DNA of 64,000 bases from the NCBI GenBank assembly GCA_964618695.1, contig CAZUDX010000006.1, positions 4,548 to 68,547 of the forward strand. Reading direction: 5' to 3'. The notes below the pieces were generated by a model that had not been told where the DNA came from, made no database searches, and saw nothing but the letters and a program-made list of their open reading frames with translations. Of the stretch, positions 2,705-58,992 are shown piece by piece. Both the position numbers and the translations under genes were made by a program. The stretch comes from an uncultured Candidatus Bathyarchaeia archaeon. Its GTDB lineage: Archaea > Thermoproteota > Bathyarchaeia > Bathyarchaeales > Bathyarchaeaceae. How positions within the stretch are numbered: the first letter of the stretch is position 1; the number at the start of each line of letters is the position of its first letter.

Positions 2705-5700
2705 CCTACATACCTCAATGCCTCTGCGGGAGGAATTCTTGAAGCTGCAATCGCAGGGAGTGAACCTGACCCTAATGCTATTAGAACAATAATGGAAAGA
2801 TACAATCCAATTTCTTCCCAAGGAATCACAAGTGCTGTGTTTTGCATGTTTGCAAAACCCGTACTCACAAGCAATCCGTTGATTACTCCGATGATTAATC
2901 CGATTATTCCAAGTACCACCAGTTCAAGGAGAACTGAAAGAATAACTTGTCTTCTGGGAAATCCTATGGCACGCATCATCCCAATCTCCCGTTTTCTTTC
3001 GGAAACATTTCGAACCGCAATGACGCCCATGCCTACTGCTCCTATTGCTAAACCAAATGTTACGTAGATTTGTAGAAAAGATGATATTCGATCCAACATC
3101 TCCAAGGTGGACTCGATTCTTGAATAGGTTAGAGTGGAACTTGCAACAAAGAAGTTGTCAGTTGCCAGAAGGCGATATCCCTCGTCGTTTGTATTTGTGA
3201 ATTCTTCAATTGCCTGAGCTATATCCTCAAGTTGAGGATCGTCAATTGGGAGATTGGTTTTAATCAGATAAGAGTCGTATTGGTCTTTCTCCCTTGAGGT
3301 TAAGGTTTTGCCGTTTGCTTCACCTAGATAATTTGTTTGGTTTGCCCAATTTTCGGGTAGGTATAGTGTTCCTAGAATTGAGCTAAAATCAGATTCGCCT
3401 GATCCAAAATCTAATCCAGCCCCCAAAGGGAAACCCCCACCACGTTGACTGTCAAGAGTGCCCCCAATTGTGAAAGCTTGATAATTAGGCAATCCAACTG
3501 ATGAAGTATTCATTGGTATCCAGATTTGAAGTCCAACAGGTAGAAGAAATGAATCTGTGAAAACTATTGGGTTTTTGATAATGTCACCATCTTCATCCTT
3601 CAGAGGCGCAACTCCTTCAAGAGGGTCCTCACCTGAACCTCCTATAGCTCCTGACTGAAATTCGGAAAGGTCAATTTCTCCGGTAAATATGGCAAGTAGA
3701 TCAGATGTAACATTGTATGCAGCCATATTGTATTGGGGATCGAAAATTTGATCCCAAGCTTTTTTCGATAGGTCTAGCATTTCAGTATCGGAGAGGTCTG
3801 AAGTAACAGATTCACGTATACCATCAGGAAAACCATTTAGATAAAAGGCGTAACGCCAGTTGGGATCTGAATAGTCTGAAGCATTGCCTCGGATCTGCTC
3901 TGACTTGAATTCTCCTGTTCCGATTGGAAGCAAATCCGTTCTAGAGTCAAACTCAGACGAAAGGGGGTTTTCCAAGGCTATGAACTTTGAAAAATCTTGA
4001 CCGGGTTGAAAAGTTTTGAAACCAATTACATCTATTATGCGGTCATCAATCTTGTAAAGCTCATCTGAATAAGATGTGCCGGGAATGATTGCCTCAGGCT
4101 TACTCAAGAAGACTGCAAAATCTACGCCTCTAGAGTCTTCTTCAATCTGAGTTGCAGTTCCTAAGCTTGTAGGGATTAACGCAGCCACAACAACATTAAG
4201 AGTTAATATGACCGCAAAAATGGCAAAGGTTAGAGTGGAACGAGTGATATGCGAGGATATTAATGATGGTGATATCTGACCAACACCCTTTACACCCCGA
4301 ATGTTTATCAGGATGCCCCTTAAACCACGCATCACAATGGGTAGATTGAGGGCAACGAACATTATAGAACCAATTATTATCTCAATAATTCCCAGAATCA
4401 GGATTTCAATGGATAATCCGGTAATGTCTGTTACCCAGTTACCCATAGCTACAACAAACAGGATTGAGGGAATAGCCCAGAGGGTGACAGCGGTTATATT
4501 GAAAGCTTTAACCCTGTCCATGAACCGCGAGAGAACAAGACCTAGACCTCCCGTGAATAATCCGAATCCCATCATGAGGGTTCTCCATTCTTCTAGGGTG
4601 TCCCATCCTTCACTAACCCAAAAGACTTGATGTGTTTCATCAAACACTCCGTTGGTCAGAAGAAGAATGATGCCCGCAACAATCAATAGAACACCAAGGG
4701 CTGCTAGGTTCCGACTGGATTTTGCTTTGAATTTCACTTTTATTCCACGAAGAGCCTCTACAACGTTAACTCGAGAAGCCCTTAGAGCTGGAAGAATTCC
4801 AGTTATTATGCTTAGGACCACACCTACAATGACGGATAAAATAACTGCTTCTTGAGAAACAACTGGTTGAACACTTAGTTCGCCAGTTCCAAATAATCCT
4901 ACAAGATACATGGCTACAGCTTGACCAAAAGCTAATCCTCCGACAAATCCTAGAATTCCTCCGATTATTCCTTGGAATAAGTTTTCAATCATTATTGATT
5001 GGAAAATTCCCCTGCGATTGGCACCTACGGCTCGTAGAACCCCTGTTTGAAATTCTCGGTCTTCTACACTCATAAGCTGAATGTTAGTGATGAGTAAAAC
5101 ACCAGTTAAAGTGATAAGGAAACCCAAAGAGGTCAAGATTGTGCTAAGTAGTGTGATGAAGAATTCTGCGAAACCAAAGAAATCTAAACGAGCCGAAGTG
5201 ACCTGATAAATTTTTTGTGCTTCACCTGTTTGAGGGTCAACTTCTTCGGGAATTGCATCCTCTAATGATTCTACTTTAGTTCTCAAATAATCTTCGTCTA
5301 TTTCTAGGATAAAATGGTCTGCTTTGTAGGTCACCAAAAAAGCGCTTATAATGTCTGTTTCCCGTTTAGGGTCTTGCAAGCTAATCCAATCCTGCAGATG
5401 CTCCAACTTGAATACAGCTCCAGAATATTGGGAGCCAATTCCTGGACGATTAGAATCGAAAATACCAACTACCTGCAGTTCCACTCTTGAGATTTCTGGA
5501 GTAAATGAGATGATAGGTAATCGGGAGGAACCGTTTAGAGTTGGAGTCTCGAAGGCAATTTCGCTTATGTTAATGCTCGCCCGTGTTCCATTGAAACTTA
5601 TGATTGCTATGTAGGCGTCTCCTCTAAGTGTTCTTCCGGCATAGGGAGTCAAATCAAAAGGTAAAGCGTTAAGCGTAGCAATGTCCGTCCCGTTTGCTAC

Positions 5701-7561: not shown

Positions 7562-8497
7562 TTAAAGGTAGATTGTAAAATGGAGACGTTCAACTAATTC
7601 TTTGTAGCGGTTTCTTATGGTTACTTCTGTTACTTGAGCAATCTCCGCTATCTCTCTTTGTGTTTTTCTTTCTCCCGTTAATACAGAGGCAATGTAACTC
7701 GATGCTGCTGCAATTCCAGTTGGTCCTCTTCCTGAAGTTAGTTTCAATTCTTTGGCTGCAAAAAGAATTTTATGTGCAATCTCTTCAACCTTACCTTGTA
7801 TTGTCAGCTGATTACAAAATTTAGTAATATATTGGCTAGGTTTTACTGGTTTAATGAAATAGTGGAGTTTCTTTATCAAGAAACGATAGCTGCGTCCAAC
7901 CTCTTTTTTGCTTATTTGTGAAGCCTGCGAGATGTCTTCTAAAGTTCTTGCTACTCCACACTGTCGGCAAGCCACGTAAATAGCGGCTGCTGTTACGCCT
8001 TGAATAGATCTTCCACGTATGAGACGTTGCTTGACTGCTTTTCGATAAATAACTGAAGCGGTTTCAAGAATGTTTCTAGGTAAATTGAGATTATTTGCTA
8101 TCTTAGACATTTCAGAAAGGGCAAAAGCAAGATTCCGTTCAGTGGCGTCAGAGACCCTAATTCGTCTTTGCCACTTCCGCAACCGGTAAATTTGAGCCTT
8201 CTGACCTTGAGGAAATCTTTGACCATGAACATCTCGATCATGCCAATCTATTGTAGTGGAAAGTCCTTTATCGTGAATTGTAAACGTGGCAGGAGCACCA
8301 GCTCGTGCACGTTTTGCACGCTGCTCGGCATCAAAAGCTCTCCATTCAGGTCCTTGATTTGCCAGTTTTGTGACAACTACATAACCACAACTCATGCACA
8401 CGATTTCAGCAGATTCATTGTCTTTCATTAAGCGACTGCTTCCACATTCTGGGCACCCTCGAGTTGGCGGAGATGGTGATGCGTTTTCTGATTTCAT
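7562..8497 (-). CDS. tfb: Transcription initiation factor B (TFB/TFIIB)
   Basis: N-terminal Zn ribbon CPECGS...CMSCG followed by two cyclin-fold repeats. I chose the ATG at 8497 (MKSENASP...). A TATA-like TTATATAG lies ~15-25 nt upstream on the coding strand. Confidence 0.95.
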   Translation of the reverse strand: MKSENASPSPPTRGCPECGSSRLMKDNESAEIVCMSCGYVVVTKLANQGPEWRAFDAEQRAKRARAGAPATFTIHDKGLSTTIDWHDRDVHGQRFPQGQKAQIYRLRKWQRRIRVSDATERNLAFALSEMSKIANNLNLPRNILETASVIYRKAVKQRLIRGRSIQGVTAAAIYVACRQCGVARTLEDISQASQISKKEVGRSYRFLIKKLHYFIKPVKPSQYITKFCNQLTIQGKVEEIAHKILFAAKELKLTSGRGPTGIAAASSYIASVLTGERKTQREIAEIAQVTEVTIRNRYKELVERLHFTIYL

Positions 8498-8633: not shown

Positions 8634-8772
8634 AAAAAAGGAGTTATGCGGTAGATATCATCATAAGTTGAGCAGAAAACACGATTTACTAGTGAATATT
8701 AATTCGAATCCAACTTCCTACCCTAACTTCGTTTTAGTTCAATTAAACGCAATCTCCACGATTACAGATTAA
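8634..8772. repeat. Degenerate, expanded copy (copy 4) of the tRNA-3'-end-like element plus shared tail
   Basis: AAAAAAGGAGTTATGCGGTAGATATC...AATTCGAATCCAACTTCCTACCC, then AACTTCGTTTTAGTTCAATTAAACGCAAT. It is in direct orientation to the 7173 copy and carries a ~35-nt internal insertion. Confidence 0.45.
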
Positions 8773-8919
8773 CCCAGAACAATTTCTATTTTCTTATCTT
8801 GAAATTTAAAAAAGGACGAGTTGTGAAATGCTCGCGTACCAATTCCACATGTGTTCACTGGTTTTGATTGATTGTGCGTGCACTCGGTGTTACTGACACA
8901 GAAGATATGCAGATTTGAT

Positions 8920-9198
8920 TCAGCCGATAATTTCTACTGGACTTGCCAGAGCTTGGCCCGGAATACCCTTTCGGAAACGAGCCCTAACGAGGCCGTTCTT
9001 TCCATGCAACGCCACGATTTTTCCTCGAGCCTTATGTTTTCCGACAGGCCACGCGACCTTTCGACCTATAAGTCGCGCCGCCCTGCCAACTGATTTAATG
9101 CCGGGGAAACGGAGGATGTATTCTTTTGGCTTCTGGGTTTTCAGTCCTCTCCGACAACTCACGATGACGCCTTCACCGGTTTTAGACACAACATTCAC
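8920..9198 (-). CDS. rpl35ae: Ribosomal protein eL33 (L35Ae)
   Basis: Its 92-aa length and sequence (...GRKVAWPVGKHKARGKIVALHGKNGLVRARFRKGIPGQAL...) are typical of archaeal L35Ae. Confidence 0.9.
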   Translation of the reverse strand: MNVVSKTGEGVIVSCRRGLKTQKPKEYILRFPGIKSVGRAARLIGRKVAWPVGKHKARGKIVALHGKNGLVRARFRKGIPGQALASPVEIIG

Positions 9199-9340
9199 TT
9201 CGCATTTAGGTGATATGTTATAATTAGGTGTAGAAACTCGGATATACCTTTTTAAAGTTGTGCCCTAAGCCCTCATGCGCATGCATCAAAGATCAACTTG
9301 GAATATTTCTTGCAAATACGATTGGTTGTTTGTTCAAGAG

Positions 9341-9559
9341 TTAATCTCTTTGTTCAGTGGCAAGTTTTTTCTGATTCTGAAGCTGAGTTATGTAGCCAGC
9401 TACTCTGTTTCTTAGTTTTTTCGAAGAAATGTTGGTGAAGGTGTCCACGAGTTTTTTGTTGTTTTCAAAGTCTGTTGTGAATTTGTCTGGAAACCGTTCC
9501 ACCAATTCTCGAGCTATTCTTTTCTCCAACTCGATTTTCACCTTACCCCAAGCTTTCAC
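9341..9559 (-). CDS. rps17e: Ribosomal protein eS17 (S17e)
   Basis: [44 protein letters not shown] matches the conserved S17e N-terminal domain. Confidence 0.85.
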
Positions 9560-9609
9560 TTGTCCTCCACGAACACGTAGTTCTCCTCTGCCTTAAACAC
9601 CAATGTCGT

Positions 9610-10170
9610 TTACTCGTAGAAAATAAGTTTTTTTTCCTCGAGTCTCTTATGGAGGTTGCCAACCGATTCGTAAACATCTTCTTCCTTGGTAGCTCCCGTA
9701 CAAACCAGTTTTCCACTGGCGAAGATAAGAAATACAACTTTTGGATCATCTACTCGATAAATTAGACCAGGAAACTGTTCGGGTTCATACATGGTTTTGC
9801 CGAGACTGTAAGCCGCTTCTTCAAGTTCTATTCTCCCTGAAAGATTCGCTGAGGCAACCATGTTCACTACTTTGATTTCAGGTTTGCCAGGGATTATTAT
9901 TCCACTATTCTTTAGTTCCCTTATAACCTTCTTAATTGCTCTTTTTGCCTCTTTTTCCGACTTGGCTCCGGTGCAAACCATCTTCCCAGAATTGAAGATT
10001 AAGGTAGCAGTTTTAGGTCTCTTTAACCTGAAAACCAAACCAGGAAACTGTTTCGGACGATATTCAACGGTTGGATTTCCCTTAACAACAGCGTTCAAGT
10101 CAATCCTCTGATTTAATGTACCAGTTGCTACGACATTTTCGATTCTGATAGAAGCTTCAACTCTGGGCAT
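9610..10170 (-). CDS. tbp: TATA-box binding protein
   Basis: Two direct repeats: IENVVATGTL...QFPGLVFRL...TATLIFNSGKMVCTGAKS and VVNMVASANL...QFPGLIYRV...VVFLIFASGKLVCTGA. Confidence 0.95.
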   Translation of the reverse strand: MPRVEASIRIENVVATGTLNQRIDLNAVVKGNPTVEYRPKQFPGLVFRLKRPKTATLIFNSGKMVCTGAKSEKEAKRAIKKVIRELKNSGIIIPGKPEIKVVNMVASANLSGRIELEEAAYSLGKTMYEPEQFPGLIYRVDDPKVVFLIFASGKLVCTGATKEEDVYESVGNLHKRLEEKKLIFYE

Positions 10171-10537: not shown

Positions 10538-11500
10538 TTATGTTGCCAGTGTCTGTGCAAGTTGTAGCAAACTCAAGTCCAATGGTTTTTCTGTTTTGCA
10601 CACTTGCTCAAGTTCGATGCTCGTTATTCTTCCTTCCTGTAATCCAACCATCCTGTTTCCCTGTTTGTTCAGCAGCAGTTCAACCGCTTTGTTTCCGAAT
10701 AAATTAGCTAAGAGCCTGCTTCTTGCTGTGGGGTTGCCGCCTCTCTGGGCGTAACCTGAAACGCTTAACCTCACATCTATCCCCGTTTGTTCCTCAATTT
10801 CTTTCAACAGTTTATGGGTGTCACCGATTCCCTCTGCTGCCACGATTATGCCTGACTTCTTTCCTTTAGCACTGTTTTGCTCTAGAGTCCTAACGATCTC
10901 CTCCAACGAATATTCCATTTCTGGAACCAAAATTATCTCAGCTCCAACCGTAAGTCCAATTGTCAAAGCTAGAAACCCTCTTTTTCGTCCCATAACCTCA
11001 ACTATGAAGACCCTTTCGTGGGAGTTCGCTGTGTCCCGAATTTTGTCAATCTCATTGACTGCAGTGTTAACTGCTGTATCAAAACCTATAGTCTCCTCAG
11101 TTCCAAAAACATCATTGTCAATTGTCGCAGGAATCCCCACTATCCGCGCATCGGTTTCTCTGCTTAATTCTAAGGCTCCTCTTAAAGAGCCGTCACCACC
11201 CACAACGACAAGTCCATCAACTTTGTTCAAAGCAAGAGTTTCCGCAGCTTTCTGCACGCCCTTTTTCTTTCTGAACTCTGGGCTTCTTGATGTGCGGAGA
11301 ATCGTGCCGCCCAAATGAAGTATTCCGCCAACGCCTCGGGGAGTCAACTTTCTATATGTGTTAGTTAACAGGCCGTCCCATCCCCTCTCGAAACCTAACA
11401 CTTGCAGACCGCTTGAGCAAGCGACCCTGACAACTGCTCGGATAGCAGCATTCATGCCCGGAGCGTCTCCCCCGCTTGTCACCAATCCTATCTTCTTCAT
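10538..11500 (-). CDS. pfkA: ATP-dependent 6-phosphofructokinase (PfkA family)
   Basis: MKKIGLVTSGGDAPGMNAAIRAVV, GGDGS, IPATIDND and MGRKRG motifs. I chose the ATG at 11500 rather than the ORF start at 11551. Confidence 0.9.
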   Translation of the reverse strand: MKKIGLVTSGGDAPGMNAAIRAVVRVACSSGLQVLGFERGWDGLLTNTYRKLTPRGVGGILHLGGTILRTSRSPEFRKKKGVQKAAETLALNKVDGLVVVGGDGSLRGALELSRETDARIVGIPATIDNDVFGTEETIGFDTAVNTAVNEIDKIRDTANSHERVFIVEVMGRKRGFLALTIGLTVGAEIILVPEMEYSLEEIVRTLEQNSAKGKKSGIIVAAEGIGDTHKLLKEIEEQTGIDVRLSVSGYAQRGGNPTARSRLLANLFGNKAVELLLNKQGNRMVGLQEGRITSIELEQVCKTEKPLDLSLLQLAQTLAT

Positions 11501-11667
11501 CGTCCATTCTCCAGTCAGTAAACATTCAAGACAAAATGTTACGCTAAACAAAATAATAAGCTTGAGTGCAAAAGATATTCCCGAATCGCCCTTAACTGAG
11601 CATTTGACGGAACTTTTTCGCCTGCGCTGGAGATATCTCGGTGAAACTCGTTGTTTTTGTGCACGAA

Positions 11668-11916
11668 TTAGCAGTTAATGTTCAATGGTGTCTTAGTAAT
11701 AGCTGGATTCCCTTGATGAAGAATGAACCCGAAACCATTGGAGTTGTGGTTAATAATAGCCCAATCTTTTGTTGGTAGTCGTCGGTGAAGGGAAAAGTTG
11801 GTGTTATCCATCCGCTTATTGGCAAATAAATTAGGAGCAAAATAATGATCCAAATTGTAAAAAGAGTGGAAAGGATAAGGTTTTGCAGTTTCTTTTTCAA
11901 TTTGAAAATCTGTCAT
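11668..11916 (-). CDS. Small hypothetical protein (frame uncertain; an alternative overlapping frame 11682-11900 would encode a 72-aa membrane peptide)
   Basis: ATG start 6 nt after the upstream stop, preceded by GGGGA. Two same-strand frames are open and I cannot discriminate between them from sequence alone. Confidence 0.3.
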   Translation of the reverse strand: MTDFQIEKETAKPYPFHSFYNLDHYFAPNLFANKRMDNTNFSLHRRLPTKDWAIINHNSNGFGFILHQGNPAITKTPLNINC

Positions 11917-11922
11917 ATCCCC

Positions 11923-12456
11923 TTAGGATGTGCTTTCAGCTAATACCGAAATGCTTACTGTCGTCGGTTGGTCCGTGCTGACCGAATTTGCGGTGGTGGT
12001 GATCTCAAAATCGAATGTCCAATCTCCCGCCGAATCTAAGGCAACTCCAGAAGCGGTGTCTGGACTGCCGACATTTAATGTTGCTGTGGTGTCACCGGTG
12101 CTGTTGCTTGACCCGCCTGGTACAGTGTCGCCTACTTTGATTACGATCTGGTAGGTGGCGTAATTTCCGCTTTGACTATCCAAATCTGTGTCAAAATGTA
12201 GGTAAACGTTTGCTTTGGAGGTTGTTATGCTAACTATATCATTTAGAGATGATGTGTTGCTTGGGGTGTAGAGAATTGTTTCTCCTTCTTCTATGTTACC
12301 TAGAGTGCCTTCACTGAGAGTAATGTTGGCAACTTCTACAATGGTTTGGTTGACCGTGTTAGATGCTTGCTCATAGACAAATGCTGATACAGAAACAATT
12401 AGGAGGCTCGTCAGTATTAGAAAAGTTCCAAATGCGCGTCTTCTCAAACTGTCCAC
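11923..12456 (-). CDS. Secreted protein with SipW/TasA-type-like signal region (DUF1102/TasA-like?)
   Basis: The N-terminus RRRAFGTFLILTSLLIVSVSAFVYEQAS resembles the ...G(T)FAYF... end of SipW-dependent signal peptides. The rest is T/S/N-rich and predicted to be beta-rich. Confidence 0.55.
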   Translation of the reverse strand: MDSLRRRAFGTFLILTSLLIVSVSAFVYEQASNTVNQTIVEVANITLSEGTLGNIEEGETILYTPSNTSSLNDIVSITTSKANVYLHFDTDLDSQSGNYATYQIVIKVGDTVPGGSSNSTGDTTATLNVGSPDTASGVALDSAGDWTFDFEITTTANSVSTDQPTTVSISVLAESTS

Positions 12457-12562
12457 TTCGGACTCGGAATATGAACAAAATGATATTAAAATACTGTGAA
12501 CGCTGAATATTTATTCTTAATTCATATGCTATTTATCCAAAGCTCTGATTATACCAACTAAA

Positions 12563-14203
12563 ATGAAGAACAAAAGGAATACCGCTGGTCTACTGTTTGC
12601 TACTTTGGTTTTATTGATACCTATTGCCCAGGCTTTAACGTATAACCAGCAATCTGATACTATTGCTCAAACAATCAGCAACATCCCAAATTTCTTCGTG
12701 GACAATAATACTTCGGATATGGATTCTAGTGTTGACAAGGGTACTCATTCAAACTTCACCGCAGAACAATATGGTCCAAACTCGATTTATGACACTCTAA
12801 CAGAGGCAGATACTGGAGGCACCGAAACTGGATATAAAGTCCAACAAGGATATGCCGAGATTGGAGCAACTTCTACTACGCTTGATGTAACTTTAGACTA
12901 TATTCCTGACCTGAGTCGAGCTTTTGTTCTTGTTCACTATTATTATGGTCAACCAAACAGCAACATAAATCATGAAGCAGATGAGGGTATGGGAAATGCA
13001 TATCTCTGGGATGATTCTGGTACAACAAAAATCAGGTTCACCCGAGGCGCACAACATGGCATAGTGACTCGATGGGAATGGCAAGTCATTCAATGTTTCA
13101 ACCAAGAGTTCAAAGTGTACCGTGGTTCTCAATCTTACTCTGGAACTAATACTTTATACACTCCAAACATTGGAGCTACGGTTAATGGAAGCAATTGTTT
13201 AGCTTGGGTGAATGGGGTAACTTCTGACAAGACAGGAAGAGGCAGAATCAGAGAACACTACTTCACAGCCGACGAAAGTGCTGGTTCACAAACTACTCTT
13301 AATATTCGGAGATATGCACCCGCTGGAGGTCCGAGTGGAACACTCAGATGGATAGTTGTAGAGTTTGACGTAGGTGGACACTTCAATGGAGCAATAGATA
13401 GTGGGGAAGTGAGTGTATCTAATCAATACGAATCAAGTCCAGCAACTTTTACCATAACTGGTTGCAATAAATCGCGTTCAATTCTGTTAGCTCAAACAAG
13501 AACCAGCGGGGATGATGGACTAAACACTCATGCTACGGCTGTTAGAATGGTTAGTGACACTCAGGGAGAGGCTTACACTCATGATAACAATTTCCTTCGA
13601 GTTGTTAGATGGTACGCTATAGACTTTGGGCCAGATGTTGGGAGCAGACAAGAAGGCAGAATCGACAACACGGCTAATCCCAATTGGAACTCAGAAGACA
13701 TCACTCTATCTCCAAACATTACTGTTAATAGAACAATTTCGTATGTCAGCTTCACTAGTGATGGCGATGGAACGTTATTTCCTAGACCAACCTGTTACTA
13801 TTGGCTTTCAGCTCCAGACAATCTTGCAATCAGGAGACCAAGATATGGACAAGAAGGAAATATAGAATGGCAAATTCTTGAACTACCATATTCTGCCAAT
13901 ACTACAAATTACGAATTAGACCTTGAAGTTCAATGGACAAACATCGATTACCATGAACAGAATGAAGAACTTTGTATATACGCGGGAACAACGGGGTCAG
14001 AAAATATCAAAGTAGACGTTTGGACCGGTTCAGAGTGGGTAAATCTATTCACAGATCTTAACAGCGGATGGAATAACGTTACAGTCACTTCTTATCACAC
14101 ATCTTCAACGTTTACTATCCGATTCAAGGGCGGCACAGAATCAACCGATGCCACACAGGACTACTGGACCATAGACACAACACTATTACACACTTGGACT
14201 TGA
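12563..14203 (+). CDS. Secreted hypothetical protein (546 aa)
   Basis: Signal peptide MKNKRNTAGLLFATLVLLIPIAQA and many N-x-S/T sequons. It is divergent from the 11923 gene. I recognised no catalytic motif. Confidence 0.7.
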   Translation: MKNKRNTAGLLFATLVLLIPIAQALTYNQQSDTIAQTISNIPNFFVDNNTSDMDSSVDKGTHSNFTAEQYGPNSIYDTLTEADTGGTETGYKVQQGYAEIGATSTTLDVTLDYIPDLSRAFVLVHYYYGQPNSNINHEADEGMGNAYLWDDSGTTKIRFTRGAQHGIVTRWEWQVIQCFNQEFKVYRGSQSYSGTNTLYTPNIGATVNGSNCLAWVNGVTSDKTGRGRIREHYFTADESAGSQTTLNIRRYAPAGGPSGTLRWIVVEFDVGGHFNGAIDSGEVSVSNQYESSPATFTITGCNKSRSILLAQTRTSGDDGLNTHATAVRMVSDTQGEAYTHDNNFLRVVRWYAIDFGPDVGSRQEGRIDNTANPNWNSEDITLSPNITVNRTISYVSFTSDGDGTLFPRPTCYYWLSAPDNLAIRRPRYGQEGNIEWQILELPYSANTTNYELDLEVQWTNIDYHEQNEELCIYAGTTGSENIKVDVWTGSEWVNLFTDLNSGWNNVTVTSYHTSSTFTIRFKGGTESTDATQDYWTIDTTLLHTWT

Positions 14204-14296
14204 ACTGATTTTCTATACTCAAAAAAGGAGGATGGTTTAAATCCCTCCAAAAGAATTTCAATTAAGTTTAAAAGTCGCTTTCAGGACATTACTGCA

Positions 14297-14932
14297 ATGA
14301 AACGGGAGGAACAACATTTGAGTGATGAAGCCCAAAGTCGTTTTTACATTCCAGGAGCCACCACAATCGGCTTGGTTTTCTCTGACGGCGTCATATTAGC
14401 CTCAGAAAAACGAGTTTCCTACGGCACCATGATAATGAGCAAAACTGGAAAAAAGGTTTTCAGAATTGCTGATACTGTAGGTGCAGCCTGTGCAGGTTTG
14501 GTTTCGGATATGCAGGTTTTGGTGCGAGAGGTGGAAGCCTACGCAAAGCTCTTCGAGTTCGACGCGAAGAGACCGATGCCCGTGAAGTCAGCCGCTAAAG
14601 TTATGGCAAACGTTCTCTTCGGCAGACGCTTGATTCCTTTGATTACCCAAACTATCATTGGCGGAATGGATGAGGAAGGACCATCAATTTATGTGCTCGA
14701 TGTTATTGGTTCTGTTTTACCCGACAAATATGCTGCTGTAGGTTCAGGAGCCCAGATCGCCACTGGAGTGTTAGAGGAAGGATACAAAGACAACATGTCC
14801 CAGCAAGACGCAAAAGCGTTGGTGCTGAGAGCAATAAAATCAGCTGTGAGCCGAGATGCCATGAGCGGAGACGGCGTAGATTTCATGACAATCACAAAAG
14901 AAGGAATCCAAGAAGAAACCACTACCTTCTGA
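14297..14932 (+). CDS. psmB: Proteasome subunit beta
   Basis: Propeptide followed by the TTIGLVFSDGVILASEKR (Thr1) motif, plus GSGAQIATGVLE. Confidence 0.95.
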   Translation: MKREEQHLSDEAQSRFYIPGATTIGLVFSDGVILASEKRVSYGTMIMSKTGKKVFRIADTVGAACAGLVSDMQVLVREVEAYAKLFEFDAKRPMPVKSAAKVMANVLFGRRLIPLITQTIIGGMDEEGPSIYVLDVIGSVLPDKYAAVGSGAQIATGVLEEGYKDNMSQQDAKALVLRAIKSAVSRDAMSGDGVDFMTITKEGIQEETTTF

Positions 14933-14934
14933 TT
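14919..14934 (+). repeat. 16-bp direct repeat, left copy (CCACTACCTTCTGATT), includes the psmB stop codon
   Basis: Exact match to 17895-17910. Confidence 0.8.
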
Positions 14935-15101
14935 AGCTAAACATTTCCCCTATTCCAGTTCTTCTTGAGATTCTGCAGATACCGTAAAGTCAAAACAAAG
15001 TTCTCTGTATTGTACAGCTTAAAACATATACCTGCTATTCATAACGTGTTTATACGCAATTGTCTAAAATATTTCCATTAAGATAATTAGGCGTTTATAG
15101 A

Positions 15102-17801
15102 ATGACCGACCTCTATTCGATTGAGACTCTGTTGGAGAACCTTGAGGAAATAAAGAAGCTAAAAGAATTCAAGAGGATTCGCAAGTTCCTGAAGTTCTTT
15201 TTAATTGGATTCGTAATAGGGAGAAATAACGAAAAACGAATCAAAGAACTTACTTCAAAAAATTATGATATCCTATCTCATCTGATAGAGATAGTTCTTA
15301 GAAAAAAGCAAAATACCATAACTGAAAACTCCAAGAGTTGGGAAAATCTAGATCAAATTGAAGAAATTATAAGGTCTCATAAAAACGATTTCAGTGAATT
15401 TGAATATTATTCCAACTTGAACAAAATTCATGAATTTCGTACTAGACTTGCTCATCAAACTCAGAAAATGCTTGAACAAGGGATTGAAGGTGTAGAAAGT
15501 AAGCTAAAGGAGATCTTAGAGAGTGGTACCTATCTGATAGCACCCAAAAAGAAAGAGTATAATGCTTCAGTAGAAACACTCGAAAATGAAATCGAACAAT
15601 GCGTGAAAACGCCGTTACTAAATGCTGATTATGTTCATGAAATTAAAGAAAGGCTAGGGACAGCTAAAAAATCGATCTCAAATTACAATGCGGTTTTTGT
15701 TAGACAACGTAAAAAAGATTACCGCTACCTTTGGAGTAATGGATTCTTTACTCTTGATGAAGAACAACAAACAGCAGTTGTAACTGATGATAAACATAAT
15801 CTGGTAGTAGCAGCTGCAGGTTCAGGAAAAACAGAGGTACTAATTACAAGAATTGCATATATTATAAAAAGACAACCTGACTCAAGTCCACCCAAAAGAA
15901 TTCTAGCAATTGCATATCAGAGGAAAGCCAGAGAAGAAATAGAAAGGAGACTACAAGATCGCTATAACATCAAAAACACTAATGTAAGAACGTTTCACAA
16001 GCTTGGAAAAGATATTCTTGAACAAGCTGGTCACAAATATTTTCATACCGACATAGTTGGTGAAAATAAAAAAAGCGAAATCGTTGAGAAGATCTTTAAT
16101 CAAAAAATTGATAATAATCCCGATTTCTACAATCTATTCTTAAATTTTGTGAAAACCATCTACGACAAAGAGGAAAAAGAAGATGAAAAAGCGAAAGATG
16201 AAGCTCTATCATACGCCAAAGAACGTACTTACTACGCATTAAACAAAATTAAAGTAAAAAGTAGAGCTGAAAAAGAGATTATGGATTTCTTCTTAACCCA
16301 CAAACTAAATGGAAAAACCATTGCCGTGAAATACGAACCTGATATAAATGGATTCAGACCAGATTTCTACCTACCTGAATATGACTTATTTATTGAACAT
16401 TGGGGAATCACTAAAAAGGGAACAGTTCCTGAATGGTTTAATCAAACAACTGAAGAATATAAGAAATCTATGGAAATGAAAAAGAAATGGTTCTCTGACC
16501 ATGGTAAACAACTTGTTGAAACAAATGCTTATGAGTATAATCGAAATGATCCTGACAAATTCATTGAACTGTTAAAGGAACGAGTAATAAAAAAACTCCG
16601 AAATTCAAAAAATGAAATTTTCAATTTTTCTCTGAAGAACTATAAGGAAATAGTTGAACTCGTTTGGAAGTCTGATTGGACTCCTGTAGAGGATATTGCC
16701 AACTTCATTACCATTGCCAAAACCTATGGTCTGTCACCTGAGGATACTGAAGCAAGGCTTGAAGAGAAAAATTGGGATTCTAAGCAGAAGGCTTTTGCTA
16801 ATCTTGTACTGCCTGTTTTCGCTAAATATGAAGAGATATTGAAGTCGTATGATAAAATTGATTTTGAAGATATGATTAATAGAGCCATAGATGAACTAGA
16901 TAAAAATCCAACTTTGCGAGCTGACGTTTACGATCATATATTAATTGACGAATACCAGGACATTAGTGCTCAACGCAACAACCTAATAGAAAAACTAATG
17001 GAACGGAATCCCAATTGTAAATTATTCTGTGTTGGTGATGATTGGCAAAGCATAATGGCTTTTTCAGGTTCCAACGTTAATTTCTTCGTAAACTTTGGAG
17101 AATACTTCGAGGACCCAGCGATAACAATAATTTCCACTAATTACCGTAGCAATAAGACAATAGTAGATGCAGGAGCTTCTCTGATAAAGAATAATACTTG
17201 TTGCCAAATACAAAAACCCACTAAAGCAGAAAACGAAGATATAAAGCCAATTGAAATACTTGCATCGCCTCACAAAAATGGATATGAGTATGAGTATATT
17301 CAGCAAATAGCCGAAGACTGTGTAAATCGAATTATCAAATATCTTCAAAAAGGATATTCGCCTAGGGACATACTAGTACTTAGTAGATGTATGCGATCAC
17401 GTATTAAGTCAAGATACAAGTTCCTTTCCAGCATCCAAACTTTCATCAAAAAGGCAAAACAAAACAAATTGGATCTAGCTTGTGGACATGCAGACGCAAC
17501 TAATAGAGTAAGATTACTTACAGCTCATAAAAGCAAAGGTTTGGAATCTAAGGTAGTCTTTCTACTCAATGTTACAAAAGGAACTCATGGTTTCCCTTGT
17601 GATATAGAAGACTCTAAAATTTTTGAACTAGCCAGATTAGATTATCCTAGCCAAAATCATAGAGAAGAAGAACGGAGACTATTCTATGTAGCTATGACTC
17701 GTGCCATAGACGACTTGTACATTTACACTTGGGAACCAGCAAAAAGCGATTTTCTTGTTGAAATCGAAGAACACACTAAGGAAATACGCCTAAATTACTA
17801 A
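15102..17801 (+). CDS. UvrD/Rep/helicase IV-like SF1 DNA helicase with an inserted PD-(D/E)xK-like nuclease motif
   Basis: Helicase motifs AAAGSGKTEVL (I), ILIDEYQDIS (II), FCVGDDWQSIMAFSG (III), TNYRSN (IV), LLTAHKSKGLE (V) and VAMTRA (VI). The insertion carries RPDFYLPEYDLFIEHWG. The gene is conspicuously A+T-rich relative to its neighbours. Confidence 0.9.
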   Translation: MTDLYSIETLLENLEEIKKLKEFKRIRKFLKFFLIGFVIGRNNEKRIKELTSKNYDILSHLIEIVLRKKQNTITENSKSWENLDQIEEIIRSHKNDFSEFEYYSNLNKIHEFRTRLAHQTQKMLEQGIEGVESKLKEILESGTYLIAPKKKEYNASVETLENEIEQCVKTPLLNADYVHEIKERLGTAKKSISNYNAVFVRQRKKDYRYLWSNGFFTLDEEQQTAVVTDDKHNLVVAAAGSGKTEVLITRIAYIIKRQPDSSPPKRILAIAYQRKAREEIERRLQDRYNIKNTNVRTFHKLGKDILEQAGHKYFHTDIVGENKKSEIVEKIFNQKIDNNPDFYNLFLNFVKTIYDKEEKEDEKAKDEALSYAKERTYYALNKIKVKSRAEKEIMDFFLTHKLNGKTIAVKYEPDINGFRPDFYLPEYDLFIEHWGITKKGTVPEWFNQTTEEYKKSMEMKKKWFSDHGKQLVETNAYEYNRNDPDKFIELLKERVIKKLRNSKNEIFNFSLKNYKEIVELVWKSDWTPVEDIANFITIAKTYGLSPEDTEARLEEKNWDSKQKAFANLVLPVFAKYEEILKSYDKIDFEDMINRAIDELDKNPTLRADVYDHILIDEYQDISAQRNNLIEKLMERNPNCKLFCVGDDWQSIMAFSGSNVNFFVNFGEYFEDPAITIISTNYRSNKTIVDAGASLIKNNTCCQIQKPTKAENEDIKPIEILASPHKNGYEYEYIQQIAEDCVNRIIKYLQKGYSPRDILVLSRCMRSRIKSRYKFLSSIQTFIKKAKQNKLDLACGHADATNRVRLLTAHKSKGLESKVVFLLNVTKGTHGFPCDIEDSKIFELARLDYPSQNHREEERRLFYVAMTRAIDDLYIYTWEPAKSDFLVEIEEHTKEIRLNY

Positions 17802-17894
17802 TCTCGGGACTAGTTTAGTTTCTTGAGCTGAACATAACTACTCAAACTACAGAGAACGATCCCTATAAGCTAAGAAGTACGAACTAATCAGAAT

Positions 17895-17910
17895 CCACTA
17901 CCTTCTGATT
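17895..17910 (+). repeat. 16-bp direct repeat, right copy (CCACTACCTTCTGATT), embedded in hairpin AATCAGAA-N9-TTCTGATT
   Basis: Exact match to 14919-14934. Confidence 0.8.
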
Positions 17911-17993
17911 GGTTCAACTTTATAGTTTTATGAGCATAGTTTAGAAACTTTAATACCGTCAGGAATGAAGTGTTTCCTGAAGGGTGAACCAGC

Positions 17994-18611
17994 ATGTCAT
18001 TTCAGTTGACTATTGAAGAGGGCACGTTTCTTGTTAATTTAGCAAGGCAAGCTGTAACTGAATACTTAGAAAACGGCAAAGTGTTGCAGGTTCCCGAGGA
18101 TGTTTCATCCAAGCTTATGGAAAAATGTGGAGTCTTTGTTACATTAAACAGCTTACAAGAGAACAAGAAGGCGTTGAGGGGCTGCATTGGTCTCCCCTAC
18201 CCCACAACTCCCCTAGCACAAGCAGTGGTAGATGCTGCTCTCAGTGCCGCAACACGAGACCCCCGTTTCCGCCCCGTTGTCCTCGACGAACTTGACAACA
18301 TAGTCTTCGAAGTGAGCGTCCTAACTCCCCCCGAACTCGTCAAAGTAGAGAAGCCCACAGAATATCCTTCAAAAATTAAAGTTGGACGTGACGGACTGAT
18401 AGTTGAAAATGGCTACTATAAAGGTCTGCTTCTGCCCCAAGTTCCGGTTGAATATAATTGGGATGAAGAAGAGTTCCTCAGCCAATGTTCCATGAAGGCG
18501 GGTCTTTCACCCGATTCTTGGCTGCTGAAGGACACAAAAATATACAAGTTCCAAGCGATAATTTTTGAAGAAGGTTCACCCAAAGGCGAAATAATGCTGA
18601 AAACACTTTAA
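17994..18611 (+). CDS. AMMECR1-domain protein
   Basis: CGVFVTL...LRGCIG...ATRDPRF...GLLLPQV are the hallmark AMMECR1 motifs. Confidence 0.9.
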
Positions 18612-53059: not shown

Positions 53060-53725
53060 ATGGTATGCCTTAAGGATTTTAGAAGCGGTCAAAAGCGTGA
53101 TAGAACGTTAGAGGAACGTATCACTGACCGATTTTTGCTACTTTATCTAATTCACGATGCTGGTGAAGTTCTTGGAAAAACTAAACTTCAAAAACTCGCT
53201 TACCTATCTGAATTTGAAATGAATACACAAGGATTTAAAGGATTAAATTTCAATTTTATAAAAATGCCTTACGGTCCTTATAGTTCAGAGCTAGAGAAAG
53301 ATAGGGAACTATTGATTAACTCTCACATTATATCAAGACAGGTACATGTACCAACACAGTTTGGCAGAATGGTTCTTAATAATTTTCAACATTTAATCCA
53401 AAACAATCCTGTCCTAACAGAAAAGATTCAGAAAGTAAACCGAGAGTATGCACATATTCCTAGGGATGAATTAGTGGACATTGTACATGAAATGTGCAAC
53501 CCTATGAGACCGTGGTCAACAATAAATGAGTCAAGACATGGTAGTTACCTCTTAAAGAGAATAAAGATTTGGCATAAAGACAGAGTTTTTAAACTCTCAG
53601 AGAGTGATATTGCATCTCTAGAGATTTATTTCAGCCCTACAGCATTTGACTCACTTAAGCTCTCGCTTAATGAGGCAAAAACTAAACCCGCTGTTAATCT
53701 CAGAGATGTGAAGAATCTTGCCTAA
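53060..53725 (+). CDS. SocA/Panacea (DUF4065) domain protein, putative antitoxin
   Basis: GKTKLQKLAYLSEFEM...FIKMPYGPYSSEL matches the KLqKLlY...GP signature of DUF4065. Confidence 0.75.
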   Translation: MVCLKDFRSGQKRDRTLEERITDRFLLLYLIHDAGEVLGKTKLQKLAYLSEFEMNTQGFKGLNFNFIKMPYGPYSSELEKDRELLINSHIISRQVHVPTQFGRMVLNNFQHLIQNNPVLTEKIQKVNREYAHIPRDELVDIVHEMCNPMRPWSTINESRHGSYLLKRIKIWHKDRVFKLSESDIASLEIYFSPTAFDSLKLSLNEAKTKPAVNLRDVKNLA

Positions 53726-54056
53726 AGTTTTTCTTCAGCAAAAAGCATGTAGGCAACTTAAAAAGCTTAAGAAAAAAGCTAAAGTTAGATACGAAAAAAT
53801 ATTAAAATGCCTTGATGAACTTTCAGAAGACGCAGAAAACGATTCTATACTCTTGCAAGACCCGATTTTTTATGGACTTAGGCGAATGAAAGCAAAGGAC
53901 GATAGGATAATTTTTCAAATTTGTAAAGAGTGCCGATCTAACCCCACAATTATGAGGCTTAGACAGTGTATTGATTGCGAGGAGATTCCTGCTAACGGGA
54001 TTAAAGTTTTTGAGATTCAATTAAGAAAAGATGCGTACAAGACCCATAATCATTAA
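53718..54056 (+). CDS. RelE/ParE-fold-like putative toxin with a CxxC...CxxC zinc-knuckle insertion
   Basis: The N-terminus has the A.RQLKKLKKKAKVRYEKILKCLDELSED pattern. DDRIIFQI ... IKVFEIQLRKDAYK resembles the RelE core strands, separated by CKECRSNPTIMRLRQCIDC. TTG start with an 8-nt overlap onto the upstream gene. Confidence 0.6.
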   Translation: MPKVFLQQKACRQLKKLKKKAKVRYEKILKCLDELSEDAENDSILLQDPIFYGLRRMKAKDDRIIFQICKECRSNPTIMRLRQCIDCEEIPANGIKVFEIQLRKDAYKTHNH

Positions 54057-54221
54057 GACGAGTTAAAGGAAATATCCAAAATTTCACCACAAAAAACGAG
54101 GTTCTGTTAACTCTTAAGCACATCGGCTAGTTTTGAAAGGGTGTTAACTATCGGTACATTAATATCATTAAATCCATAAGACATATAAGAAGTATCTCTT
54201 TGAATTTAATAGGGAGTATCA

Positions 54222-54812
54222 TTGAGTTTTAAGGTTTTCAAACATGACAGTTTGATTATCATCGAAGTTCCTTTAACCCAAAAAGAAATTGACAAATGTC
54301 TCGAAATGGGCAAAAAAAGAACCGAGCTAGATGAGGAAGAATTAGGATGGACATATCGCCATCATGGCATGAAAAGTGAGAAAGCCCATGCAATAGGTTT
54401 TATGGGAGAACTTGCTTTTGAAAAAATTCTTGACTCTGAAGGGATAGAGTACATAAGGAACAATCCATTTGTTGAAAAATACGAAGACATTGAACAAGAC
54501 TTCAGAATAGGGAATATTGAAATCGGAGTGAAAAGTGCAAATAATGATAGTTTGGAAGGTGCAACTAGATACGGTACCTTTCTTTATCCAGCCAAACAAG
54601 AGATGGGAGAATCTAAAAGGATTCTTTCTTACCCTGATTATTTAGTGCAAACAGTTGTCAGCATTAGTGAGAAAAAATGTTGGGTATGTGGATTTGTTGA
54701 TGAAGAAACCATACGAAAATCACCTACAAGAATAATCGTTAGAAGACCAGCTCATAGGATACCCATTGACGAATACAAACCAATAGAAACTCTTCTTAAA
54801 GAATTGGACTGA
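54222..54812 (+). CDS. Hypothetical protein, possible PD-(D/E)xK-like nuclease (candidate restriction partner)
   Basis: The order GELAFEKIL ... QDFRIGNIEIGVKSA suggests an E / D / E..K arrangement. It is convergent with, and overlaps by 17 nt, the methyltransferase gene. The catalytic assignment is weak. Confidence 0.55.
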   Translation: MSFKVFKHDSLIIIEVPLTQKEIDKCLEMGKKRTELDEEELGWTYRHHGMKSEKAHAIGFMGELAFEKILDSEGIEYIRNNPFVEKYEDIEQDFRIGNIEIGVKSANNDSLEGATRYGTFLYPAKQEMGESKRILSYPDYLVQTVVSISEKKCWVCGFVDEETIRKSPTRIIVRRPAHRIPIDEYKPIETLLKELD

Positions 54813-57156: not shown

Positions 57157-57175
57157 CTCAATTCTCTCTTATTAG

Positions 57176-57382
57176 TTAAATTTCTCCAGAGTTCCTTATG
57201 GGTTTCACAATTATAACCAATTCACCCTCTTCGACTTTCAGTTTCCAGCTTAGTTTGTCTCCTGCCTTGAGATTAAACTGTTTAATTATGCTCATTGGAA
57301 CGGTTGCTCTCATTGAAGTACTTTTTGTTGTCGCTGGTGTTAGTGTTGTCGTTTCTCCAATATCTTCTTCATTGGCATTCAT
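57176..57382 (-). CDS. AbrB/MazE/SpoVT-family small DNA-binding protein
   Basis: RATVPMSIIKQFNLKAGDKLSWKLKVEEGELVIIVKP is a swapped-hairpin AbrB-like pattern. I chose the ATG at 57382, because the rest of ORF 57176-57718 runs through the intergenic operator array and into the transposase gene. Confidence 0.7.
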   Translation of the reverse strand: MNANEEDIGETTTLTPATTKSTSMRATVPMSIIKQFNLKAGDKLSWKLKVEEGELVIIVKPIRNSGEI

Positions 57383-57397
57383 GGTATCCACATTGAT

Positions 57398-57503
57398 AGG
57401 TAATGCATTAGGTAACTTATAAAACTTTTTACCTAAAAATTGTCTAAAACATTTACCTAAACATTTATATATTAGGTAAGCGTATAGGTAAAATTGTAGG
57501 TAA
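57398..57503. promoter_or_regulatory. Array of seven TAGGTAA boxes (five forward, two inverted) between the divergent abrB-like and transposase genes
   Basis: The AGGTAA core occurs at 57398, 57410, 57474, 57486 and 57498 on the forward strand, with 12-bp spacing within the forward clusters. TTACCT occurs at 57429 and 57453. Confidence 0.6.
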
Positions 57504-57508
57504 AGCTT

Positions 57509-58639: not shown

Positions 58640-58659
58640 CCGCTTTTCTCTAAAAAAAT

Positions 58660-58992
58660 TTATCCAGAAGCTCCAGTGCGTTCCAATCTCATATTCAATG
58701 TTCCATTGTAAAGAATTTCTTCGTAAAGAAACTGAACAAACTTGCCAAACAATTCATACATTGCATTATAGTTTGGTTCTCCTGTTTTCATCCCAGAACC
58801 TAATCCAACGCAGATTTCATTTTCAAATCCTTCTGTGCCTCCCATACTCGATGTATCGTCATTTACATCAAAACCTTGCTTTTGGAAAACACGGATAAGC
58901 TGTTGCCATTTATCTATAATTACTCCCTCATTCATCAGATGTGATTTTTCAATTTGTATCCATAACTCAGCATAAGTTTCTCCCATATCCAT
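58660..58992 (-). CDS. Hypothetical 110-aa acidic protein (element cargo)
   Basis: An ORF only. I recognised no motif. Confidence 0.5.
   Translation of the reverse strand: MDMGETYAELWIQIEKSHLMNEGVIIDKWQQLIRVFQKQGFDVNDDTSSMGGTEGFENEICVGLGSGMKTGEPNYNAMYELFGKFVQFLYEEILYNGTLNMRLERTGASG

Follow-up and report, generated by a model that had tools for sequence, protein, structure and literature searches.

How did a single helicase gene, with no recombinase beside it, come to lie between two genes that are close neighbours in most relatives of its host? The question is raised by a 64,000-nucleotide stretch of DNA (the window) from an uncultured Candidatus Bathyarchaeia archaeon (GenBank assembly GCA_964618695.1, contig CAZUDX010000006.1, positions 4,548 to 68,547 of the forward strand), in which an A+T-rich segment of ~3 kb encoding an 899-aa helicase-nuclease separates psmB, the gene for the proteasome beta subunit, from an AMMECR1-family gene. 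The segment is an insertion flanked by repeats and foreign in composition, and its gene is intact, conserved and a member of a mobile family associated with integrases. We consider it probable that the segment is a site-specifically integrated element whose integrase was lost or acts in trans, much as in the cis-mobilisable elements (CIMEs) of bacteria, and that it carries a probable defence or DNA-surveillance gene.

The segment is delimited by a direct repeat. Within the window the 16-mer CCACTACCTTCTGATT has exactly two copies, at 14919-14934 and 17895-17910; allowing up to two mismatches adds none, and two or more matches were obtained in none of 100 dinucleotide-preserving shuffles. With one mismatch the repeat reaches 21 nt, AGAA[A/T]CCACTACCTTCTGATT (14914-14934 versus 17890-17910). 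The left copy spans the final psmB codons and the TGA at 14930-14932 and aligns colinearly with the psmB 3' end of relatives that lack the segment. The right copy begins 93 nt past the stop codon of the 899-aa open reading frame (ORF) and represents the displaced psmB end, (E)STTF-stop, with the TCC codon used in relatives. The locus reads as follows (att, attachment site; SF1A, superfamily 1A).

14297-14932, plus strand: psmB, proteasome beta subunit, 211 aa, the target gene (ORF; Pfam PF00227, E = 5e-53)
14914-14934, plus strand: attL-like repeat copy (exact 16-mer at 14919-14934; 21-mer with one mismatch from 14914)
14935-15011, plus strand: left non-coding end of the insert (alignment with loci L021 and L022; blastn of the flanks)
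15012-15101, plus strand: upstream region of the helicase gene, putative archaeal promoter and 5' untranslated region, containing TGTTTATAC at 15047
15102-17801, plus strand: SF1A helicase-nuclease, 899 aa (ORF, Pfam, structure models)
17802-17880, plus strand: right non-coding end of the insert, with no conserved counterpart at other helicase loci (alignment, blastn of the flanks)
17881-17915, no strand assigned: inverted repeat resembling a recombinase core site (DNA fold)
17890-17910, plus strand: attR-like repeat copy (exact 16-mer at 17895-17910)
17911-17993, plus strand: native psmB-AMMECR1 spacer, resumed past the insert (spacer alignment with relatives)
17994-18611, plus strand: AMMECR1-family gene, the usual downstream neighbour of psmB (Pfam PF01871, E = 4e-57)

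The G+C content is 0.34 between the repeats versus 0.42 in the remainder of the window, and it falls from 0.44-0.48 in the adjacent genes to 0.32-0.36 exactly between the repeats. G+C at third codon positions (GC3) is 0.29 in the helicase gene versus 0.44-0.48 in neighbouring genes. Apart from ORFs nested within it, the helicase is the sole ORF of at least 60 aa in the island, and tblastn with seven Bathyarchaeia integrases found none in the island or in the whole window. An initial annotation of this DNA had described a single-gene A+T-rich island without integrase, bounded at both compositional boundaries by a 16-bp direct repeat that covers the last psmB codons and stop; the repeat search, composition profile, ORF list and tblastn bore this description out. 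An artefact of one assembler is ruled out by an independent Logan contig (L001), which is identical over both junctions. No tRNA genes or Rfam families were found in the window, and a tRNA-type att site at psmB was rejected for that reason.

GTDB genomes were then scanned with the psmB protein, which yielded 19 Bathyarchaeia loci, including one on a closed Bathyarchaeum chromosome. Synteny of psmB and AMMECR1 was found in 19/19, within a class-wide block of genes for phosphofructokinase, psmB, AMMECR1, glycosyltransferase, FtsJ, a winged helix-turn-helix protein, Kae1, Bud32, Ham1, S15 and a RecJ-like protein. In most of these loci psmB is followed after ~100 bp by AMMECR1, with no helicase within 10 kb on either side; this uninterrupted junction is what the initial annotation had expected of an insertion with att-like repeats at the psmB 3' end, and the contrary case, relatives carrying the helicase at this position, did not occur among the 19. 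The psmB identity to the closest loci (L002-L007) is 79-91%, the nearest empty ones being L002 (91%), L003 (90%), L004 (86%) and L007 (79%). When the window flanks were joined across one repeat copy they aligned colinearly with the empty sites, and the window spacer matched those of L002-L004 and L006 at 93-96% identity over 41-55 nt. The helicase segment is a true insertion into the 3' end of psmB.

The reverse history, in which psmB and AMMECR1 had the helicase between them from the start and deletion between the repeats emptied the site in other genomes, is very improbable. The divergence of the window helicase from its 82% identical homologue in locus L022, which is similar to that of host genes, would suit it. 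Empty sites, however, extend across the full sampled diversity (psmB 66-91% identical), the gene keeps a GC3 well below that of its neighbours with no sign of amelioration, and its homologues occupy other slots and integrative elements. The right repeat is, moreover, a redundant copy of the gene end, which is the mark of an insertion.

Two exceptions among the relatives, L005 and L006, carry different cargo inside the last few psmB codons, and in both the original psmB end, CAACTTCTAATTG, now lies beyond the right edge of the insert. Insertion has thus struck the psmB 3' end more than once, which makes it a hot spot. The cargo in these loci (L006:10600-11640; L005:10610-12740) is a minus-strand gene for a 244-254-aa protein with an N-terminal signal or transmembrane segment and a C-terminal transmembrane segment. 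In L005 the gene is duplicated in tandem; the two copies differ strongly, and before each of them stand a copy of the psmB 3' end and ~180 nt of near-identical non-coding DNA, such that the flanks are conserved and the interior is variable.

How the segment entered can be approached from its right end. The right repeat copy sits within an inverted repeat, recorded earlier as AATCAGAA-N9-TTCTGATT; the hairpin is present, and its size had been understated, the true extent being a 13-bp stem with one G-T pair, GAACTAATCAGAA / TTCTGATTgGTTC, at 17881-17915. Its arm GAACTAATCAGAA lies at 17881-17893, the 9-nt spacer TCCACTACC at 17894-17902 and the arm TTCTGATTgGTTC at 17903-17915. Folded as DNA, the hairpin reaches -8.7 kcal/mol (z = -6.0), with 0/200 shuffles as good. 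A role as terminator was rejected, because the right end shows nothing terminator-like and the 16-mer does not recur, its two copies in the window being at odds with the suggestion that it belongs to a terminator found downstream of many genes. Joining the element ends across one repeat copy produced a perfect 10-9-10 palindrome (z = -6.7). The element side, just left of the right copy, still resembles the psmB ends of relatives (AGAATCCA...), as is expected of an attP that carries the 3' end of its target gene. The junction sequences would be attB = GAAGAAACCACTACCTTCTGATTGGTTCAAC and attP = GAACTAATCAGAATCCACTACCTTCTGATTAGCTAAAC; precise excision would regenerate GAAGAAACCACTACCTTCTGATTGGTTC.

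These features suggest a probable course of events. The segment 14935-17894 would have been acquired horizontally and would have entered by site-specific recombination within the last 16-21 bp of psmB. A circular form with an attP mimicking the psmB 3' end would rebuild the stop codon upon integration. This attP, CTAATCAGAA-TCCACTACC-TTCTGATTAG, would be an almost perfect inverted repeat such as dimeric recombinases bind, and crossover within CCACTACCTTCTGATT would leave one copy at each end. As to the type of recombinase, we infer that a tyrosine integrase is the most likely enzyme; its present absence would mean either that the integrase was deleted or that the element has always been the rider of an integrase encoded elsewhere.

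A less specific route would be illegitimate or microhomology-mediated recombination (or transfer followed by recombination), with the repeats as by-products and the segment subsequently fixed. It would account for the missing recombinase, for the variable slots along the block (phosphofructokinase|psmB, AMMECR1|glycosyltransferase, glycosyltransferase|FtsJ, Bud32|Ham1, S15|RecJ) and for the homologues in L022 and L106, which lie without repeats. We nevertheless regard it as unlikely: a 16-21-bp duplication at both boundaries together with an overlapping 13-bp inverted repeat is far beyond chance, the element side of attR mimics the psmB ends of other species, unrelated cargo used the same few bp in L005 and L006, and repeat-flanked units recur in the helicase family.

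The cargo itself was predicted in the initial annotation to be a UvrD-like SF1 helicase whose N-terminus is coiled and into which a Vsr-like PD-(D/E)xK module is inserted, and this architecture was supported by Pfam, alignment to PcrA, structure models and a PADLOC hidden Markov model (HMM). Pfam identified the UvrD N and C domains (PF00580, 1.5e-43; PF13361, 2.8e-19). A helical N-terminal domain (aa 1-215) is followed by Walker A (aa 239-244), by DEYQD (616-620) and by the C-terminal 2A domain. The alignment to PcrA shows domain 1B replaced, between aa 306 and 565, by an inserted region of ~255 residues (aa ~306-560) with a predicted Vsr-like PD-(D/E)xK core at aa ~385-480 (nt ~16255-16541) that includes E392, D421, E432-H433-W434 and K460. 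All helicase motifs are invariant in 40 homologues (50-86% identical), and so is the nuclease-like set E392, P420-D421-F422, E432/W434 and K460.

The full AlphaFold (AF2) model had a mean predicted local distance difference test (pLDDT) score of 84 and matched UvrD, PcrA, Rep and AddA in Foldseek (E = 1e-15 to 1e-16 for UvrD and PcrA). A separate model of residues 301-566 (pLDDT 81) matched the catalytic domain of I-Bth0305I (3r3p; probability 0.99, template modelling score 0.64), the DUF559-like NGO0050 (3hrl) and Vsr (1vsr/1cw0), all of them weakly (E > 0.04). The PADLOC PD-DEXK HMM matched the insert segment at E = 3.5e-7; the nuclease segment had no Pfam or PDB sequence match, and the N-terminal 215 residues showed no similarity above noise in Pfam, PADLOC or PDB. 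The top NCBIfam match was DNA helicase IV (PRK11054, 7e-80) at 269 bits, below the equivalog cut-off of 543, with the C-terminal half alone aligning well. With dN/dS ratios (non-synonymous to synonymous substitution) of 0.13-0.18 versus three homologues, the gene is intact and under purifying selection. The protein is an SF1A UvrD/helicase-IV-like helicase with a putative embedded Vsr-like nuclease, and it represents an uncharacterised family.

The family is mobile and associated with integrases. A homologue 69% identical to the window protein (L023/L024) lies beside a complete Lamassu system (LmuA-LmuC-LmuB), an AAA ATPase and a tyrosine integrase, and a 65% homologue lies near GIY-YIG, LmuB-like, HerA and NurA genes. 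The 86% homologue (L021) adjoins an MCM-C winged-helix protein. The 82% homologue (L022) separates rps15 from the RecJ-like gene, two genes with just 15 bp between them in the window (24179/24195), and the 60% homologue (L106) lies between Ham1 and rps15 of the same block, where the Ham1 C-terminus has been replaced. At 45 further metagenomic loci the neighbours were nearly all unique, the sole recurrent one being a PF00589 tyrosine integrase. In L026 and L028 the helicase lies within elements bounded by tRNA-3' repeats, with the integrase adjoining the tRNA; the L026 element is 6 kb long and comprises the helicase, a few small ORFs and the integrase. The same gene order of helicase, integrase and tRNA was found in L058, L062 and L068. 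Viral contigs (IMG/VR) yielded no close relatives, only helicases 25-29% identical, and a viral origin of the cargo was rejected on this ground.

What travels with the gene in every context is little more than its putative promoter. The upstream region of the helicase is 85-88% identical over 51-88 nt to those of L021, L022 and L023/L024, and the window, L021 and L022 have only the ORF and the promoter-proximal ~90 nt (from 15012) in common. The left end of the insert (14935-15011) had no counterpart in empty sites or the closest helicase loci, and alignment and blastn of the flanks showed no similarity of the island's non-coding ends elsewhere beyond the promoter-proximal ~90 nt. The five closest helicase genes all have 33-34% G+C, independent of their flanks.

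Helicases of the family recur by the same housekeeping block (compare window 9.6-25.6 kb) in L022, L106, L060 and L085, in the slots S15|RecJ-like and Ham1|S15, between RecJ-like and Bud32 homologues and next to TBP. This recurrence exceeds the expectation for random insertion into genomes of 1.5-2.3 Mb; it might stem from conserved 3' ends that act as att sites, from hopping over short distances or from a functional tie. Small double-zinc-ribbon or prokaryotic-RING proteins adjoin distant helicases (L060:8922-9536, L042:3165-3797, L037:5348-6173, L038:2857-3682), the L060 protein lying inside a repeat-flanked unit.

Is the psmB insert then alone in having repeats and no integrase? Five such units of 3.0-3.7 kb were found, namely those in the window, L066, L107 and L060 and one segment of L069. 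The helicase is the only gene in three of the five; L107 and L060 add one or two small ORFs. On a 2.2-Mb contig, L107 (58% identical helicase) has a 3.65-kb unit with the helicase and a 103-aa ORF, framed by the two copies of a 14-bp repeat; directly inside these, the ends form a perfect inverted pair of 13 bp. The flanking repeat is 16 bp in L066 and 60 bp, adjoining tRNA-Gln, in L060, and the tandem array of L069 includes one 3.1-kb att-flanked segment with the helicase only. For each helicase we also compared the 1.2 kb on its upstream side with the 1.2 kb on its downstream side and recorded the longest stretch that both share exactly, with mismatched locus pairs as control. Repeats of at least 14 nt were present at 6/56 loci versus 20/1100 control pairs, and repeats of at least 16 nt were enriched (4/56 versus 2/1100). 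A 14-nt repeat in L050, GAGGAAAAGAAGTT, was dismissed as a low-complexity chance match. Joined ends were palindromic elsewhere too: L107 gave a 15-9-15 palindrome with a folding energy of -14.9 kcal/mol versus -1.1 for the reconstructed target, and L066 a strong palindrome with 16-bp arms.

Further sequence motifs were seen around these units. In L069 a 17-nt motif, TATTTGGAGCCTAATAG, part of a conserved stretch of ~60 nt, occurs three times (3063-3079, 4641-4657, 8330-8346), the last of them shortly upstream of the att repeat at 8395. Another copy is at L106:12941-12957, 250 nt downstream of the helicase, and the motif is missing from the window; it may be an element-end or arm-type site. Around both unit ends of L066 (70-180 and 3420-3500), TGACGGTTGGT or its complement appears about five times in direct and inverted orientation, which resembles iterated protein-binding sites.

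Such units invite the reading that the gene moves itself, the helicase-nuclease recognising a palindromic or cruciform joint and driving or triggering its own insertion and excision, perhaps with involvement of the helical N-terminal domain, loosely like HUH-helicase elements or free-standing homing endonuclease genes. The five independent integrase-less units, three of them helicase-only, speak for it, as do the promoter-plus-ORF module in three slots of one housekeeping block with no integrase nearby and the palindromic joints of the window, L107 and L066, whose unrelated sequences suit structure-specific recognition. The best compact structural match of the nuclease domain is, in addition, the catalytic domain of a homing endonuclease (3r3p), although the Foldseek E-values of this domain are all weak. 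Homing would, however, give no target duplication, and L022 and L106 have no repeats. PD-(D/E)xK nucleases hydrolyse DNA and form no covalent intermediates for conservative strand transfer, and we know of no PD-(D/E)xK-type transposase of such a kind. Many family members also sit in ordinary integrase-bearing, tRNA-integrated elements, which explains mobility with no new mechanism, and we judge self-mobilisation to be an outside chance. Since relatives sit beside tyrosine integrases, the lack of an integrase in the island does not imply an autonomous single-gene element; given how often the family occurs in tRNA-integrated elements with such integrases, mobilisation in trans or loss of the integrase is the simpler reading.

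The function of the cargo is a separate matter. On the reading that we prefer, it would be a stand-alone enzyme that translocates on foreign or aberrant DNA and cuts it, in defence against mobile elements or in DNA surveillance. Single-protein antiviral nuclease-helicases exist, for example Nhi. In PADLOC, GajB HMMs matched the protein (2.7e-52) as a generic GajB/UvrD signal; there is no GajA partner, the gene standing alone between psmB and AMMECR1. The PADLOC search proposed with the initial annotation returned the GajB/UvrD and PD-DEXK matches. That annotation had further suggested a possible mobile defence or repair cassette. A mobile defence cassette remains plausible for the psmB insert: the insertion and att reading held, and defence is suggested by association (Lamassu and an integrase beside one 69% homologue); we infer both present-day mobility and a defence function.

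The cargo could instead be a helicase-IV-like enzyme of repair or replication restart, or a replication (nick-and-unwind) protein of small integrative plasmids, which we regard as possible yet the less likely role. DNA helicase IV is the top curated match, and the family recurs near genome-maintenance genes (RecJ-like/GAN, Kae1-Bud32, HerA-NurA), the 86% homologue adjoining the MCM-C winged-helix protein. The L026 element has, apart from its integrase, no large gene but the helicase, which there takes the place expected of a replication protein, and UvrD-like helicases of thaumarchaeal integrative elements are read as replication modules (PMC6563490). Opposed to this are the helicase IV score, far under the equivalog cut-off, the neighbourhood of Lamassu and an integrase in L023 and the scarcity of relatives in viral contigs, which hold only distant ones. 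The gene is also patchy and missing from the equivalent loci of the closest relatives, and so is not a housekeeping gene.

Comparison with known systems places the element near two of them. Integrated elements of Thaumarchaeota have att repeats with a median of 17 bp, and 14/68 lie in the 3'-distal part of protein genes; their stop codon can come from the element, their sizes go down to 2.6 kb and they form tandem arrays at re-used sites (PMC6563490). The psmB insert resembles these cryptic integrated elements and integrated mobile genetic elements (Krupovic et al. 2019, PMC6563490) in its short repeats (16-21 bp), in a target gene end and stop supplied by the element and in its cargo, since some thaumarchaeal elements carry UvrD-like helicases. 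It shows their empty target sites, att repeats and deviant composition; they are defined by an integrase gene, whereas this element has no internal integrase or recombinase, a single gene and a host in Bathyarchaeia. Site-specific integration into a 3' gene end is thus already documented behaviour in archaea, and what is unusual is the lack of any recombinase in this one-gene element. CIMEs keep attL and attR and have lost the genes for integration and transfer (ICEberg 2.0, PMC6323972). Likewise, the window element keeps both att-like ends with no integration, transfer or recombinase genes, its cargo has relatives in integrase-bearing elements, and the att-flanked helicase-only segment of the L069 array resembles CIME accretion. 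CIMEs, however, were defined in bacterial conjugative systems with a known cognate integrative and conjugative element, whereas no cognate was found for the psmB att.

Other systems fit less well. Helicase IV (HelD) and the UvrD-PcrA-Rep group share all SF1A motifs, from Walker A and DExx to motifs III-VI in the 1A/2A RecA-like domains, and the fold with the window protein, and helicase IV has a comparable N-terminal extension before the motor; the window protein differs in its sub-cut-off score, the Vsr-like insert at domain 1B and an N-terminal domain unlike anything detectable. Gabija GajB and Hachiman HamAB (PMC12278908) also couple a helicase motor to a PD-(D/E)xK-type nuclease and are encoded on mobile islands, but the window gene has neither GajA nor HamA, its PADLOC matches reflect the shared UvrD core only and its nuclease is an internal insertion, not a terminal domain or a subunit of its own. 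The direct duplications of 14-16 bp, and in L107 the perfect 13-bp inverted repeats inside the 14-bp repeat, recall casposons and insertion sequences (IS). The window element, in contrast, has no Cas1 gene and no transposase, and its two ends do not mirror each other as terminal inverted repeats would: the inverted repeat seen here arises between the right end and the repeat/host flank, and the only DDE transposase of the window lies outside the island, at 57509-58639. Integron gene cassettes do not match either, as the 35-bp palindrome lacks the RYYYAAC/GTTRRRY core sites of attC, the window has no intI and the gene has its own conserved promoter region.

Several observations weigh against a site-specifically integrated element that has lost or borrows its integrase. 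No integrase with a psmB-type att site was found anywhere searched, in addition to the tblastn result of zero for the 64-kb window; an integrase-bearing element does abut psmB in L010, yet neither it nor the tRNA-integrated elements with relatives of the cargo use the psmB 3' att. The homologues in L022 (82%) and L106 (60%) have no clear flanking repeat. Several clean helicase-only units, against a single integrase remnant in the adjacent L069 segment, are somewhat unexpected under random decay. For a circular junction or same-species empty site, the degenerate 23-mer AGAAWCCACTACCTTCTGATTRG gave 0 matches in JGI metagenome contigs and the junction 21-mer 0 matches in viral contigs; in an exact-protein index AMMECR1 led only to the insert-bearing Logan contig, and psmB and the glycosyltransferase were not on record. 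Tyrosine recombinases typically have spacers of 6-8 bp, and the 9-nt spacer of the window is longer. The synonymous divergence (dS) between the window and L022 is 0.58 for the helicase, close to the 0.7-0.9 of host genes, and because of this a long residence with relocation of the helicase may be conceivable. A defence role, finally, is suggested by few neighbourhoods; the PADLOC matches are generic, a GajA-like partner is missing and NCBIfam ranks helicase IV, a repair-type enzyme, first.

Other variable DNA was observed around the locus. Between phosphofructokinase (10538-11551) and psmB, the window has 2.7 kb (11552-14296) that are missing in L002, L004 and L007, where the two genes abut, and shorter in L003; this slot encodes proteins of 177 aa and 546 aa with signal-peptide-like N-termini, the latter with no Pfam match. 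Directly upstream of psmB in L010 (1494-9919) there is a gene set like that of an integrated element, with a tyrosine integrase (8672-9919) 37% identical to the helicase-associated integrases, a Cdc6/Orc1-like AAA ATPase, a 590-aa protein of unknown type and a 938-aa ResIII helicase with a TnsA-like nuclease domain. For L010, a 14-nt repeat that spans psmB and AMMECR1 was put down to chance. The slots Bud32|Ham1, AMMECR1|glycosyltransferase, glycosyltransferase|FtsJ and S15|RecJ hold unrelated inserts in other loci (L002 15475-16812, L005 17561-18535, L007 17090-18035 and gaps in L009-L020). A second low-G+C island of the window (~36%; 53060-58992) encodes a SocA/Panacea antitoxin-like protein, a 786-aa ParB-N and N6/N4 DNA methylase protein and the DDE transposase at 57509-58639, which is of IS6/IS240 type and includes a SWIM zinc finger; L011, L015 and L016 have related transposases 2-6 kb upstream of psmB.

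Bathyarchaeia are abundant uncultured archaea of sediments whose mobile elements and immune genes are barely charted. At the psmB locus, integration into the 3' terminus of an essential gene can be read to the base pair; empty sites are available for comparison, the hot spot has been re-used and the palindromic attachment site can be reconstructed. The helicase-nuclease family, which travels with tyrosine integrases and in one case lies beside Lamassu, is a candidate for a single-protein defence or DNA-surveillance enzyme. Archaea would have their own counterpart of bacterial CIMEs or satellites if the integrase-less units are mobilised in trans; if these units truly moved themselves, they would represent a new type of mobile element, with a new mechanism of transposition or homing in Archaea.

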